IMG/VR virus record: IMGVR_UViG_3300035698_016751
DNA: 44,731 nt
Reading direction: 5' to 3' (one strand)
Source of the DNA: a virus
In this document: piece after piece, positions 4,373 to 42,240 of the stretch
Layout of the letters: every line of letters begins with the position of its first letter
Numbering within the stretch: position 1 is the stretch's first letter
Notes under the pieces: generated by a model
The model's database searches: none
The model's input: the letters and a program-made list of their open reading frames with translations, nothing else
What the model was told of the DNA's origin: nothing
Position numbers and translations under genes: made by a program

Positions 4373-4400
4373 TTTACTATGGACGTGAAATGACTATAAT
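4373..4400 (+). promoter_or_regulatory. sigma70-like promoter (TTTACT-N16-TATAAT) facing an ORF-free repeat region
   Basis: -35 TTTACT at 4373-4378 and -10 TATAAT at 4395-4400. No credible ORF lies downstream for about 600 bp. Confidence 0.35.
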
Positions 4401-4567
4401 ACTTATGTCTCAATGACACAACTAGTCTGGGCGTAAAGGGCACATAACGTTGTCCCCCCAGAATGAATTTTGGGACTACATAAAAGAAATCGCAAGAGTT
4501 AACCAAGGAGATGAAAATATGTTGTGAACGTAAAGGTCTCCGGCAAACCTAAAAGACCGGAAAGCCG

Positions 4568-5008
4568 TGTTTCGCATCCCCTTTGTCTTCGCAAGAAGAA
4601 TGTCGCAGAAGCACTACATTAATGCAAGACCAAATAATGTGTTTATTTGTTGCGTCTGGTGTCAGGCCAACATAATGGCAAAGCTTCCTAAAGGGAAGAA
4701 TTCTTCAAAAAGGAAAAATGATTATGAGTCCATGAAAGTAAAAGCAACTTTGTGTTTCGCACTCTTTGTCTTCGTAAGAAGAATGTCGCCATAAGCACTA
4801 CATGCATACTCAAGATTATTGTTTGTTGTTCTACTGACTAAACTGTGTCTGGTTGTCAGACCAAAATAAGATTTGTTAGTTAGTATGTACAACAAGAAGT
4901 GTCGAAAAAATATCGCCTACCTTGTCCTAATTTTTTAGGAATTTTGAACGGTATTACATCAAGAATATAACGGTGTCTTTAAGTAGCGGCTGGTGTCAGT
5001 CCGAAAAA
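4568..5008. repeat. tandem degenerate repeat array, three units with a period of about 185 bp
   Basis: Unit A (4568-4677) and unit B (4752-4868) share GTGTTTCGCA(T/C)(C/T)C(C/-)TTTGTCTTCG(C/T)AAGAAGAATGTCGC...AGCACTACAT...GTCTGG(T)TGTCAG(G/A)CCAA(C/A)ATAA. A partial third unit (4895-5008) keeps AAGAAGTGTCG and GGCTGGTGTCAGTCCGAAAAAAAAG. ORF 4567..4794 only translates the repeats. Confidence 0.5.
4876..4893 (+). promoter_or_regulatory. phage-type promoter box GTTAGTTAGTATGTACAA
   Basis: Member of the TAGTTARNWTGTACAT family. About 145 bp upstream of the PTH2-like gene ATG. Confidence 0.5.
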
Positions 5009-5037
5009 AAAGACTAATTTTAAGAAAGGTCAGTAAA

Positions 5038-5607
5038 ATGAATGAATTCCAATAGGTAAAACATGAAACTCAGTACGTTTACGTTTTTATACGTGAAGAC
5101 TTATCACATCCCCAACAGATTGTTCAATCCTGTCATGCAGCGATTGAAGCAAGCTCTCTGATTTCCCCTGATTCGGAACATCCGCACCTCGTTCTTTGTG
5201 GTGTTCGGAGTGAATCAGAACTCGAAAAAATCTCTGCTCGACTTAGAGCCTACGATATCCAATTCAAAGCATTCCGAGAACCAGACCGTAATAATGAATA
5301 TACCTCTATCGCTACCGAACCAATTAGTGGTAATAAGAGAAAGATATTCAAACGGTATCAATGTCTCAGGGATAAAACTGCCAAACCAAAACTAAGCGAT
5401 AATCAATGTTGTGGTAATTGCGAAAGTGGATGTTTTTCAGATAATTGCGCATGGTCATCTGGACATTGCGAATGGGAATCTGATGAAATTCCTAATTGGG
5501 TAAGTAGAGCTAGTTGTAAAGATAATGGGCAATTCAGATATTTTGCAGATGGCACAGACTGCTCCTGCTGGAAACCAATTAAGGAGAAAATAAATGTTGT
5601 GTTATGA
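5038..5607 (+). CDS. PTH2-family peptidyl-tRNA hydrolase-like protein with a Cys-rich C-terminal extension; N-terminus interrupted
   Basis: Frame 1 translation gives YVYVFIREDLSHPQQIVQSCHAAIEAS...HLVLCGVRSESELEKISARLRAYDIQFKAFREPDRNNEYTSIATEPISG. This matches the PTH2 core (KMVVVIRNDL...AQxxHAA...VVLKVxSEEEL...AGxTQI.PGxxT.LAIGP). The reading frame has no start codon after the in-frame TAG at 5053-5055. ATG 5038 (SD AAAGG) lies 5 codons upstream of that TAG. Alternatively, ATG 5063 in frame 2 joins the frame if the T5 run at 5084-5088 is read as T6. The C-terminal roughly 70 aa is Cys-rich (QCCGNCESGCF...CSCW). Confidence 0.45.
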
Positions 5608-5839
5608 ATTTAGATTTGCTTTTTATGAATATGAATTTGGGTGGGGAGAAGAATCAGAAAGATTTTCGTCCTTAGAAGAAGCCAAAGAGTTTAGAAAAAA
5701 ATTCCGAGACGCTAAAAAATTACAAGACGCCAATATTTTTGATGATAATCCCAGCTTTTTAGATGAACACTATGGGAGATTTGGGACACTCAAAGAATCA
5801 ATTGGGCTATTTGAAATCACAGAAAGGAAATTGGAATGA
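5594..5839 (+). CDS. hypothetical protein (81 aa)
   Basis: ORF with a GGAGAAAA SD at -8. Acidic, no motif. Confidence 0.4.
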   Translation: MLCYEFRFAFYEYEFGWGEESERFSSLEEAKEFRKKFRDAKKLQDANIFDDNPSFLDEHYGRFGTLKESIGLFEITERKLE

Positions 5840-5858
5840 CATAAAAACATAATGGTGA

Positions 5859-5887
5859 TTTACAAGAACGGAAAGCCGACCTATAAT
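5859..5887 (+). promoter_or_regulatory. sigma70-like promoter TTTACA-N17-TATAAT
   Basis: -35 at 5859-5864 and -10 at 5882-5887, about 55 bp upstream of ATG 5944. Confidence 0.4.
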
Positions 5888-5943
5888 AGAAGCACTGAAG
5901 AACGTATAAAAATTAATTAATTCGTAAGAAAAGGAACACGAAA

Positions 5944-40701: not shown

Positions 40702-40727
40702 GGTTAGTTAGCATGTACATAAGAGGT
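40702..40727 (+). promoter_or_regulatory. phage-type promoter box GGTTAGTTAGCATGTACATAAGAGG
   Basis: TGTACAT family. Drives the GC-rich unit that follows. Confidence 0.5.
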
Positions 40728-40920
40728 TCCGAGGACGAAAGCACGCTAAGCCAAGTGCGAGGCCGTGCAGTACGGTGGCCGCTGCTTGAAATGCGACCTA
40801 ACCAACGGACCCACCCCTCCCGGCGAATGCCGGGAGTCGTTGAGGTAGAGTTAGCCGCCAGATATAAACAAAAAAGGTTTGTCGCCAACGAGGAATCAAT
40901 TGTGGTTCCTCGTTGCCTTT
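40728..40920 (+). ncRNA. candidate structured non-coding RNA (GC-rich, about 190 nt, promoter-to-terminator unit)
   Basis: A sharply GC-rich island between two promoter boxes, with internal hairpins such as CCCGGCGAATGCCGGG. It ends in a 10-bp stem CAACGAGGAA/TTCCTCGTTG plus a T-rich tail at 40891-40920. Confidence 0.35.
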
Positions 40921-40928
40921 AAGTTTGC

Positions 40929-40950
40929 TTTAGTTAGTATGTACATCCCA
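40929..40950 (+). promoter_or_regulatory. phage-type promoter box TTTAGTTAGTATGTACATCCCA
   Basis: TGTACAT family, 24 bp upstream of ATG 40974. Confidence 0.5.
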
Positions 40951-40973
40951 GTTACAGTTAGGAGACAAAAAAC

Positions 40974-41885
40974 ATGGCTGGATTTAAACAACAAGCAATT
41001 AGAGAAGATATTACGAATCGAATCATTACTTCTCTAAAAGATGGAAAAGTGCCTTGGCGTAAGCCTTGGTCCGCAGACCCAAACTGTGGAGCATCCCGAA
41101 ACATTATCAGTAAAAATGCATACCGTGGAATCAATCCTTTCCTTTTGGAAATCGCTGACCACAGATGCCAGTGGTGGGGAACATACAAGCAATTCAAGGG
41201 ATTGGGTGGTCAGGTTAAGAAGGGTGAAAAGGGAACTAAAATTGTTTATTGGAAGAGTTTTGATAAAGAACCAGATGCCAATGGAAAGGTAAAAAAGGCT
41301 TTCTTTATCCGGTTCTACACCGTCTTCAATTTGGACCAAGTAGAAGGTGGAGAAAAGCTTGAAAAATTCCGTCCTAAAGAAGAAGACCTTGATAACGTTA
41401 ACTTTGGAAGTGATGATGCGTTTAAATCTTTTGATGAAATAATTGATGCTACTAAAGCGGACATTCGCTTTGGCGGGAACAAGGCTTATTATAAAAGAGC
41501 CAGTGGACCTACGTGGCCGAAGCATACAGATGGAGATTATATTACTTGTCCTCATCGTAGACAATTCCCTGATATGAGGGAATGGTACGATACGATATTC
41601 CATGAATTAGCTCACTGGTCAGAAATTCGTTTGAAATGGGATGGTTCGTATGCGATGGGAGAATTGATTGCTGAAATTTCGGCATGTTTCATTCCTCCGT
41701 CAGTGGGACTCCCGGTTAGTGATAACATGGAGAATCACAATCGTTATCTGGCAAGTTGGCTTGAGAAAATGAAGGATGACCCAAAGTTTATCTTTAGGGC
41801 AGCGTCACAAGCACAGAAAGTGTCAGATTATGTTCTTCATTTCAGTCATCCTGAAATTGAATGGAAAGAAGAAGAGGACGAATAA
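40974..41885 (+). CDS. ArdC-like anti-restriction protein (ssDNA-binding N-domain plus zincin metalloprotease domain)
   Basis: ArdC-N signature VPWRKPWSADPNCGASRNIISKNAYRGINPFLL. C-terminal HExxH in IFHELAHWSE. Confidence 0.6.
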   Translation: MAGFKQQAIREDITNRIITSLKDGKVPWRKPWSADPNCGASRNIISKNAYRGINPFLLEIADHRCQWWGTYKQFKGLGGQVKKGEKGTKIVYWKSFDKEPDANGKVKKAFFIRFYTVFNLDQVEGGEKLEKFRPKEEDLDNVNFGSDDAFKSFDEIIDATKADIRFGGNKAYYKRASGPTWPKHTDGDYITCPHRRQFPDMREWYDTIFHELAHWSEIRLKWDGSYAMGELIAEISACFIPPSVGLPVSDNMENHNRYLASWLEKMKDDPKFIFRAASQAQKVSDYVLHFSHPEIEWKEEEDE

Positions 41886-42226
41886 TGTGGCCAACCAAAA
41901 GTATATCGTATCTTGCTAAAAAACTGTTTGGATGGACATGGGTTGAAAATGACCGAGAACCGGGAGACCCATTTCATTATTATTGGGAAGATAGCAAAGG
42001 ACAACCACAAGCTCCTTGGGATGTTCTTAATGTCCGTGATATGAAGTTAGTTAAAGCAATGCATAAGAGGGGATGGAATTTAACTGTCACATGGGATTCA
42101 AATGAATGGCCTATTGTTGAATGGCAAAATGAATCAAGTAAATTTACAGTTTGCCTTGAGGATTTTGCCCGATGCATTTACGCTTGTACCATTAAGGCAT
42201 TGAGGTCAACAAAGGCGTTTAGTTAG
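41885..42226 (+). CDS. hypothetical protein (Trp-rich, 113 aa from ATG 41885)
   Basis: ATG overlaps the ArdC stop (TAATG). Ends in TAG inside the next promoter box. Confidence 0.35.
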   Translation: MWPTKSISYLAKKLFGWTWVENDREPGDPFHYYWEDSKGQPQAPWDVLNVRDMKLVKAMHKRGWNLTVTWDSNEWPIVEWQNESSKFTVCLEDFARCIYACTIKALRSTKAFS

Positions 42227-42240
42227 TATGTACAAGGAAT
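42218..42240 (+). promoter_or_regulatory. phage-type promoter box GTTTAGTTAGTATGTACAAGGAA
   Basis: TGTACAT family, 4 bp upstream of ATG 42244. Confidence 0.5.

Follow-up and report, generated by a model that had tools for sequence, protein, structure and literature searches.

The question raised by this locus is how an uncultured virus turns on its genes: which promoters lie in front of them and which RNA polymerase reads these promoters. We analysed a stretch of 44,731 nucleotides (nt) from the IMG/VR record IMGVR_UViG_3300035698_016751, hereafter called the window, and all motif coordinates are given on its scale. An earlier note on this DNA had proposed that two promoter classes, a host-like sigma-70 type (class 1) and a phage-specific box (class 2), partition the window, and that a sigma-70-like factor encoded there reads the second. 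Two distinct, recurrent promoter-like classes are indeed present, both far above chance. The reading that we favour, with modest confidence, is that at least two promoter types are in use and that the class 2 box is read by the host core RNA polymerase together with a phage sigma factor, often giving leaderless messages.

The class 2 pattern TAGTTARNWTGTACAT has six exact matches in the window, against 0.00 expected from 100 shuffles. Allowing up to one mismatch gave 11 sites (one more than the ten previously counted), all on the plus strand, where 0 were expected; five additional matches at three mismatches are at chance level (6.75 expected at up to three mismatches). The two identical 22-mers reported before were found at 33975 and 35468 (TAGTTAAGATGTACATGGAGGG). 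Alignment of 25 non-redundant sites gave the consensus T-TA[G/A]TTA[A/G]G-A-TGTACAT-G, with about 25 bits across 18 nt, no conservation further upstream and no -35 element. The base after the box is G in 17 of the 25 sites. All 19 class 1 and class 2 sites are on the coding strand and lie within or at the edge of intergenic segments. The rule that class 2 boxes always stand 3-60 bp before a start codon or a non-coding RNA is nearly right, the exceptions being the 38247 box, 105 nt before the likely ATG at 38368, and the 4877 box, which fronts no open reading frame (ORF). Their frequent overlap with the preceding stop codon is seen at 22403, 35468, 37091 and 42220.

The box is conserved in relatives of the window. 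Sigma-like proteins about 70% identical to that of the window are encoded on metagenomic contigs of 33-75 kb (including L003, L007, L020 and L021), which keep the box as TA[A/G]TTA[A/G]GATGTACAT, only on the coding strand and in front of the same genes: both halves of a split helicase, sigma, AAA and ArdC. Tandem boxes occur as well: L003 and L020 have three 5' of the sigma gene, and L007 has two 5' of the helicase C half. Where a plus-strand gene follows a minus-strand gene, the divergent region between them requires a promoter; five of six such regions in the window, L003 and L007 carry a box and one a class 1 site, which we counted in favour of a promoter role. Neither class was found in a seventh, at 9317-9361 of the window.

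The sole match in the phage collection is LR756511.1 (LR756511 below), a complete 595-kb "uncultured phage", whose AAA and sigma-like proteins are 47% and 24% identical to those of the window and are encoded by adjacent genes in the same order. The octamer AGCTGTAC occurs 134 times in LR756511, where base composition predicts about 16 copies. The first 19 kb contain 55 plus-strand copies, with one for each small gene; the remainder are mostly on the minus strand between 19 and 300 kb, and almost none lie past 300 kb. Boxes also precede the sigma and AAA orthologues. The region LR756511.1 1-19200 (L024) consists of about 55 small genes head to tail, each with a AGCTGTAC box, and many of them share the near-identical leader TTATAAAGCTGTACTTAAAGCTTTACCTCTAACGCAAAGGAG; this array converges at about 19.3 kb on minus-strand genes that likewise have boxes. 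It is speculation that the dense array looks "early" and that the lack of boxes at 300-595 kb hints at a class that would not be late.

Four more distant lineages with the sigma-like gene, LR756511 among them, also have the core AGTT-N4/5-TGTAC. An alignment of 60 sigma sequences was too diverse for locus retrieval; a sub-family alignment then retrieved the distant lineage L037, from a 102-kb IMG/VR contig of 27% GC, in which AAGTTTGATTGTACAATG occurs five times. L039, from a 546-kb contig, has AAGTTTAGTTGTACA or AAGTTTATTTGTAC six times, L036 (62% GC) has its sigma gene flanked by CTTAGTTAACG[G/C]ATACGT on either side, and L040 has ...CAGTGTACAA 5' of it. The frame common to the box lineages is AGTT-N4/5-(T/G)(G/A)TAC. 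Box and sigma orthologue co-occur in five lineages, from 27% to 62% GC, and the box lies 5' of sigma itself in the window clade, LR756511, L036, L037, L039 and L040. A 68-kb contig of 46% GC with a more distant sigma (L041) has a different, bipartite motif, TGAGTCAAAC-N10-GCGGGGTCTA, found six times on the coding strand at 6586-16326; in style it resembles ECF-type promoters (AAC ... GTCTA). This correlation suggests that the box accompanies the sigma family in genomes of very different base composition and changes where sigma is most divergent. Covariation of the TAGTTA/TAATTA variant with the sigma sequence was uninformative, since both variants coexist in single genomes.

The distance between box and start codon was fixed in a large subset of the sites. 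The ATG follows exactly 8 nt past the box end, 10 nt past TGTAC, in 12 of 34 sites (window, L003, L007 and L021), in front of eight different genes, and the base at -1 is a pyrimidine in all 12. The 8-nt filler is not conserved between orthologues (ggagggcc versus gggagcgt; caaaaccc versus atatgctt versus atatattt); several fillers have no purine-rich stretch and there is usually no usable Shine-Dalgarno sequence. The same gap was found at orthologous boxes, in L007 at 6252 (helicase N half, with another filler) and in L003 and L021 (AAA clamp-loader-like gene). We considered GGAGG after some boxes as a Shine-Dalgarno sequence and rejected it: GGAGG or AAGG in the fillers ends 1-4 nt before the ATG and is thus too close to it to be usable, it is missing in orthologues with the same spacing, and the genuine ribosome-binding sites of this genome are AAGGA at -8 to -14. 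In LR756511, N10 and N11 are the commonest offsets between TGTAC and ATG, and the -1 base is a pyrimidine in 17 of 17 sites against a baseline of 52%; offsets of 15-20 are almost empty (2 of 134 sites), and from about 21 they resume, there with normal Shine-Dalgarno sequences. L039 has a spacing of N11-12 in three sites.

A fixed distance between promoter and ATG without a Shine-Dalgarno sequence, combined with Y(-1)/A(+1), is what classically marks leaderless transcripts. We found this combination for the sites with the 8-nt gap and in LR756511, which argues that many class 2 messages probably begin right at the start codon. Transcription would then start about 10 nt after TGTAC, 8-9 nt past the box end, and the box would occupy about -25 to -9, with TGTAC at about -15 to -11, AGTT at about -23 to -20 and no -35 element. 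Leaderless mRNAs are predicted where the ATG sits at this start, that is, for the helicase N half, the helicase C half, the AAA clamp-loader-like gene and ORF 42244, while the other class 2 genes would have a leader of 11 to about 95 nt with an AAGGA Shine-Dalgarno sequence.

The candidate reader of the box is the product of the ORF at 38326-39318, which the earlier note had called sigma-70-like and which is indeed a sigma-70-family protein by fold. It probably starts at ATG 38368, since its homologues begin at MPK. Regions 2, 3 and 4 can be recognized by fold, including the sigma-2 fold of region 2 and a helix-turn-helix domain in region 4; the AlphaFold2 model has a pLDDT of 71.5. In sequence searches, the ORF had no Pfam match at E ≤ 0.01 and no PHROG match, and its score with NCBIfam FliA/WhiG (30.7 bits, E 2.4e-7) is below the curated cutoff of 189.6. 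A profile search against Protein Data Bank (PDB) sequences gave almost only SigA, weakly (E ~0.4), and two homologues have weak precomputed Sigma70_r2 and Sigma70_r3 matches. The family is large, with 454 cluster representatives (50% identity) at E ≤ 1e-3 and 305 at E ≤ 1e-10; LR756511 has one orthologue. It is plausible that this factor reads the class 2 box, as had been predicted. Its own leader of about 105 nt contains, directly after the box, a 7-bp hairpin (38263-38300, CAAGAAG-AGTGA-CTTCTTG) that is conserved in four relatives, in which one pair has changed in a compensatory way and G-U changes are seen, and it may be an autoregulatory element.

Class 1 (TTTACA-N16/17-TAYAAT) has six exact plus-strand matches in the window against 0.13 expected; near variants at 4373 (TTTACT) and 9998 (TATCAT) bring the total to eight. 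The sequence common to the sites, TTTACAA-N13-CTAYAAT, is longer than the two hexamers. The hexamers of all eight sites match TTGACA/TATAAT in 10-11 of 12 positions, with a spacing of 16 or 17 nt. Generic sigma-70 patterns were not enriched in the window (48, 56 and 54 found versus 40, 45 and 44 expected), and class 1 is therefore a specific subclass and not background. The sites are on the coding strand 5' of genes, and orthologous positions are kept, those of pncA and pncB in L003, L007, L020 and L021. The count of eight agrees with the earlier one, but the two sets may differ, as the site of ORF 24345 is merely TTGAAA-N17-CATAAT. The extended sequence GGTTTACAA...GTCTATAAT ascribed to three copies is exact in two (10536 and 25924), whereas 18460 has the GGTTTACAA half only. 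The description of class 1 as near-consensus sigma-70 promoters 5' of cargo genes held for the ABC transporter, PncA, PncB/NadE and the VWA/OmpA block. These sites would be strong sigma-70-type promoters that drive metabolic and cargo genes and are most likely read by the host holoenzyme. At pncB, directly after pncA, an 18-bp stem (25929-25970) encloses the spacer and the -10 hexamer of the class 1 promoter; this hairpin is partly kept in L003 and L021 and may be a terminator that overlaps the promoter.

The proposed partition of the window is loose. Cargo and metabolic genes do have class 1 sites in front of them, and class 2 boxes cluster in the helicase/sigma/AAA/ArdC block, the replication/recombination block of the earlier note. 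However, three class 2 boxes (4877, 22403 and 25975) lie in the cargo region, pncB has both classes, since box 25975 lies just 3' of class 1 site 25924, and 14 of the 30 intergenic segments have neither class. In addition, a third promoter-like or operator-like region, 5' of the minus-strand gene 33118-33840, serves the minus-strand block 30327-33840.

In the reading that we favour, class 2 would be one contiguous two-part box with the core AGTT-N4-TGTAC, here T-TAGTTA-AGA-TGTACAT-G, without a -35 element. Its reader would most likely be the host core RNA polymerase carrying the sigma-70-family factor 38368-39318, and with its gene behind a class 2 box this factor would amplify its own expression. 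The model builds on observed motifs, with their enrichment, strand, position, conservation and fixed spacing, and on the observed sigma fold. It is the simplest one because a crude motif test found no RNA polymerase signatures in ORFs of at least 300 amino acids of the complete 595-kb relative.

Several points weigh against this model. The sigma gene stands behind a box in every lineage, so that its expression needs some other priming, and a simple scheme of host polymerase followed by phage sigma lacks a visible bootstrap; it might come from read-through, from weak recognition by the host or from a packaged factor, none of which is visible in the window. A contiguous box of high information without a -35 element is more typical of phage polymerases (T7-like, or phiKZ/AR9 virion enzymes), and for the region 4 of the factor no -35 target is obvious. 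As the window is a fragment, a phage polymerase or a second factor could lie elsewhere; the search for polymerase genes in LR756511 was a crude regular-expression test. The transcription start, like the reader and any timing, is something we infer, the start from spacing alone, and the G after the box would also suit a start of the T7 type where the box ends. Finally, the different motif of L041 fits co-evolution of factor and promoter but is no proof of it.

One alternative is that class 2 is read by a phage RNA polymerase (T7-like or a phiKZ/AR9-type multisubunit virion enzyme) or by a factor encoded outside the window, in which case the sigma factor would be a box-driven product that directs a further, unseen class. 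A contiguous box of 16-18 nt and about 25 bits without a -35 element does resemble T7-type and AR9 early promoters, the G after the box and the sigma gene behind a box in every lineage would fit, and with boxes nearly absent from 300-595 kb of LR756511 another promoter class must exist there. However, neither DFDGD nor RHGxKG nor T7 motif A/C was found in LR756511 ORFs of at least 300 amino acids (aa), in the window or in related loci. T7 motif A/C was likewise not found by the same crude patterns in ORFs of at least 150 aa of the window or related loci, and DFDGD or D.DGD in none of at least 150 aa of LR756511, the window or relatives; a relaxed DFDGD-type pattern gave one low-complexity match among LR756511 ORFs of at least 300 aa. 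For a T7-type block the observations point both ways: the block is 18 nt long and G usually comes next, yet the N8 spacing points to a start 9 nt further. The fixed N10 before the ATG, together with the pyrimidine at -1, is what start selection by a multisubunit enzyme would give, rather than a T7-style start at the box end. We regard this alternative as rather unlikely.

Two further explanations do without a promoter function of the box itself. The box could act in RNA, as an endoribonuclease processing site or as a translational operator or enhancer in polycistronic transcripts; this would suit the four boxes that overlap preceding stop codons in apparent operons, and a distance of 8 nt from the ATG is the place of a ribosome-binding element. 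Boxes are also found, however, in divergent regions that have no same-strand transcript to process, in tandem arrays, at 21-105 nt from the ATG of many genes with their own AAGGA Shine-Dalgarno sequence and, at 4877, in front of no ORF, and they show no complementarity to the anti-Shine-Dalgarno sequence, all of which makes an RNA-level role very unlikely. An operator for a dimeric regulator that binds the ATGTACAT palindrome and modulates promoters too weak to be recognized seemed to us the least likely of the readings. TGTACA is a perfect palindrome, and such palindromes are known operators of YefM-YoeB-type antitoxins (PMC1802561). Against an operator, the conserved upstream half (TTAGTTAA, or AGTT) is asymmetric, every copy has a single orientation relative to genes, no other promoter elements are conserved near the box, and L036 loses the palindrome (GATACGT) but keeps the AGTT...TAC frame. 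We also rejected a MotA-type activator site, as no conserved -10 element lies downstream of the box, and an N4-type hairpin promoter, as the 8-nt palindrome cannot give a stable stem-loop.

Phage sigma factors with promoters of their own (SPO1, T4 gp55, phiEco32 gp36), next to host-type early promoters, are textbook knowledge. SPO1 (gp28, gp33/34), like similar phage sigma cascades, resembles the window in having host sigma-70/sigma-A-type early promoters and then a phage sigma-70-family factor that redirects the host core. The middle and late promoters of SPO1 have two parts, a -35 and a -10 element separated by about 17-18 nt, whereas the window box is contiguous without a -35 element, and its candidate factor belongs to an unannotated family without a Pfam match. 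T4 early promoters prefer a GTTTAC-type -35 element, like class 1. The late promoters of T4 (TATAAATA, gp55) and the -10-only promoters of phiEco32/7-11 gp36 are, like class 2, single blocks without a -35 element that are read by a phage sigma-family protein. However, gp55 is minimal, has no region 4 and needs gp33 and the sliding clamp, whereas the window factor has regions 2, 3 and 4, and the class 2 box (16-18 nt, reaching to about -25) is twice as long as the T4 late block; the window thus has neither a region 2-only factor nor an 8-nt -10 block of the gp55 type. In the Thermus phages phiYS40 and P23-45, transcription of many messages begins with the A of the ATG, and their promoters have no -35 element; these promoters are of the extended -10 type and are read by the host sigma-A holoenzyme modified by phage proteins, not a long box with a phage sigma factor. 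If the start is placed correctly, class 2 is also similar to sigma-54 promoters, being compact and two-part, near -23 and -13, without a -35 element, but it has no GG/GC elements, the factor has a sigma-70 fold, and there is no sign of a requirement for an enhancer-binding ATPase. The giant phages phiKZ and AR9 share with the window phage conserved contiguous blocks in many copies, often one per small gene, and a start, predicted in the case of class 2, that is fixed 6-9 nt downstream. Their promoters are read by phage multisubunit polymerases, none of which was found in the complete relative LR756511. The AR9 early promoter is AAATATATATTAT-N6-G+1, with leaders of 26-491 nt (PMC5312081), so that AR9 messages are not leaderless, unlike those predicted for the class 2 sites with the 8-nt gap. 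Our literature search found no description of the class 2 motif or of transcription in LR756511. Phage sigma systems, fixed-start single-block promoters of giant phages and leaderless phage messages are already known; the novelty lies in the factor family, in the box and the fact that several huge-phage lineages have kept it, and in the compact geometry proposed for it.

Table 1 Promoter-like elements of the window and the gene of the putative class 2 reader
Feature	Coordinates	Strand	Context
Class 2 box, TGTACAA variant	4877..4892	+	In 700-nt non-coding repeat region; no ORF after it
Class 2 box, TAATTA variant	22403..22418	+	Overlaps stop of ORF 21618-22409; 5' of AAA protein of 617-623 aa
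Class 2 box, 1 mismatch	25975..25990	+	Directly 3' of class 1 site 25924; 5' of pncB
Class 2 box	33975..33990	+	Divergent intergenic region; ATG 33999 (UvrD-like helicase N half) 8 nt past box; predicted leaderless
Class 2 box	35468..35483	+	Overlaps stop of ORF 35082-35474; 21-nt gap, AAGGA Shine-Dalgarno, ATG 35505
Class 2 box	37091..37106	+	Overlaps stop of ORF 36186-37097; ATG 37115 (helicase C half) 8 nt on
Class 2 box	38247..38262	+	5' of sigma-like gene; followed by conserved 7-bp hairpin, ~105-nt leader
Class 2 box, 1 mismatch	39529..39544	+	ATG 39553 (AAA+ clamp-loader-like) 8 nt on; filler without Shine-Dalgarno
Class 2 box	40705..40720	+	Followed by ~190 nt without a convincing gene, to hairpin 40886-40915
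Class 2 box	40931..40946	+	27-nt leader with AGGAG; ATG 40974 (ArdC-like)
Class 2 box, TGTACAA variant	42220..42235	+	Overlaps stop of ORF 41861-42226; ATG 42244 8 nt on
Class 1, TTTACT-N16-TATAAT	4373..4400	+	Head of non-coding repeat region
Class 1	5859..5887	+	5' of ORF 5944
Class 1 variant, TTTACA-N17-TATCAT	9998..10026	+	5' of 2H-phosphoesterase-like ORF 10076
Class 1	10536..10563	+	5' of 609-aa ORF and VWA and OmpA-domain genes
Class 1	16304..16331	+	5' of ORF 16381
Class 1	18460..18488	+	Right after terminator hairpin 18419-18450; 5' of ABC permease and ATPase genes
Class 1	25217..25244	+	5' of pncA (isochorismatase family); kept in L003, L007, L020
Class 1	25924..25951	+	5' of pncB; within hairpin 25929-25970; kept in L003, L020, L021
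Third promoter-like region	33871..33917	-	TTGCAT-N16-TAAACT and upstream block TTGTCACGATAAATA; nearly invariant in four relatives
Sigma-70-family factor gene	38368..39318	+	Candidate reader of class 2 boxes; ORF opens at TTG 38326

Because of its synteny with relatives, we assign the window to a huge phage; it appears to be part of an uncultured marine genome, with no structural genes in view. The module AAA (~600 aa) ... sigma - AAA - ArdC - DUF3228 is also found on a 546-kb and a 68-kb contig. No relatives of the window clade were found in IMG/VR (by protein or box search), in GTDB genomes or among plasmids; a scan of IMG/VR with a 17-mer box gave nine matches, all of them single chance occurrences, and megablast with 10 kb of the window gave no match in the phage collection. 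In a simple gene model, 8.5% of the window is non-coding, and tRNA and Rfam scans gave zero matches. The encoded proteins include an HNH endonuclease, VWA and OmpA-domain proteins, a peptide deformylase, an ABC permease with its ATPase, a polynucleotide kinase-phosphatase and a 623-aa AAA protein, as well as a replication-type block with a UvrD-like helicase as two genes, the sigma-like factor, a clamp-loader-like AAA+ protein and ArdC. An 874-aa protein (1447-4071) has a major-vault-protein shoulder domain (E 1.3e-23) and weaker Vault_3 and SPFH/Band-7 matches; it is unusual for a phage and has no PHROG match. The genes at 25271-30380 form a complete row for NAD salvage and synthesis, encoding PncA, PncB, NadE with a glutaminase domain and a MazG-NMNAT fusion, which is kept in relatives.

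The UvrD-like helicase is split into an N half (33999-35069, 356 aa) and a C half (37115-38233, 372 aa) with four unrelated ORFs between them; the Pfam matches run on from the N half into the C half, and each half has its own class 2 box at the leaderless spacing. The split is kept in L007 with other genes in between, including a reversed TauE gene. Two stretches associated with boxes have no convincing gene. At 40721-40915, the sole ORF (69 aa) has its ATG inside box 40705, and a 13-bp hairpin (40886-40915) closes the stretch shortly before the following box; a small RNA or a small protein may be encoded here. The 700-nt non-coding stretch at 4373-5063 has a class 1 site at its head and a class 2 box inside, three GTCTGGT(T)GTCAG(G/A)CC-like hairpins and direct repeats (for example, GTGTTTCGCA...TTTGTCTTCG.AAGAAGAATGTCGC...AGCACTACAT twice), and has no Rfam or tRNA match.

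To our knowledge, almost everything known about huge phages (~0.5 Mb) comes from metagenomes, and hardly any study has addressed how they regulate their genes. The class 2 box is a sequence handle by which transcription units and true start codons can be located in several of their lineages, the sigma gene at 38368-39318 provides a candidate cognate factor for an ordinary core RNA polymerase, and many huge-phage messages are predicted to be leaderless. If the pairing of factor and box is true, the two would form an orthogonal pair of sigma factor and promoter with a specificity of about 25 bits, useful in synthetic biology, and with an unusual promoter geometry for a protein of the sigma-70 fold. 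A bolder proposal, which we put forward as tentative and rather doubtful, is that a whole unannotated sigma-70-fold family (at least 454 clusters) reads a compact AGTT-N4-TGTAC element at about -23 to -11, in a -24/-12-like arrangement, makes no -35 contact despite its region 4 and routinely produces leaderless messages. Were this true, it would be a promoter architecture undescribed for the sigma-70 family and would provide a predictable, conserved transcription signal for annotating half-megabase phage genomes.

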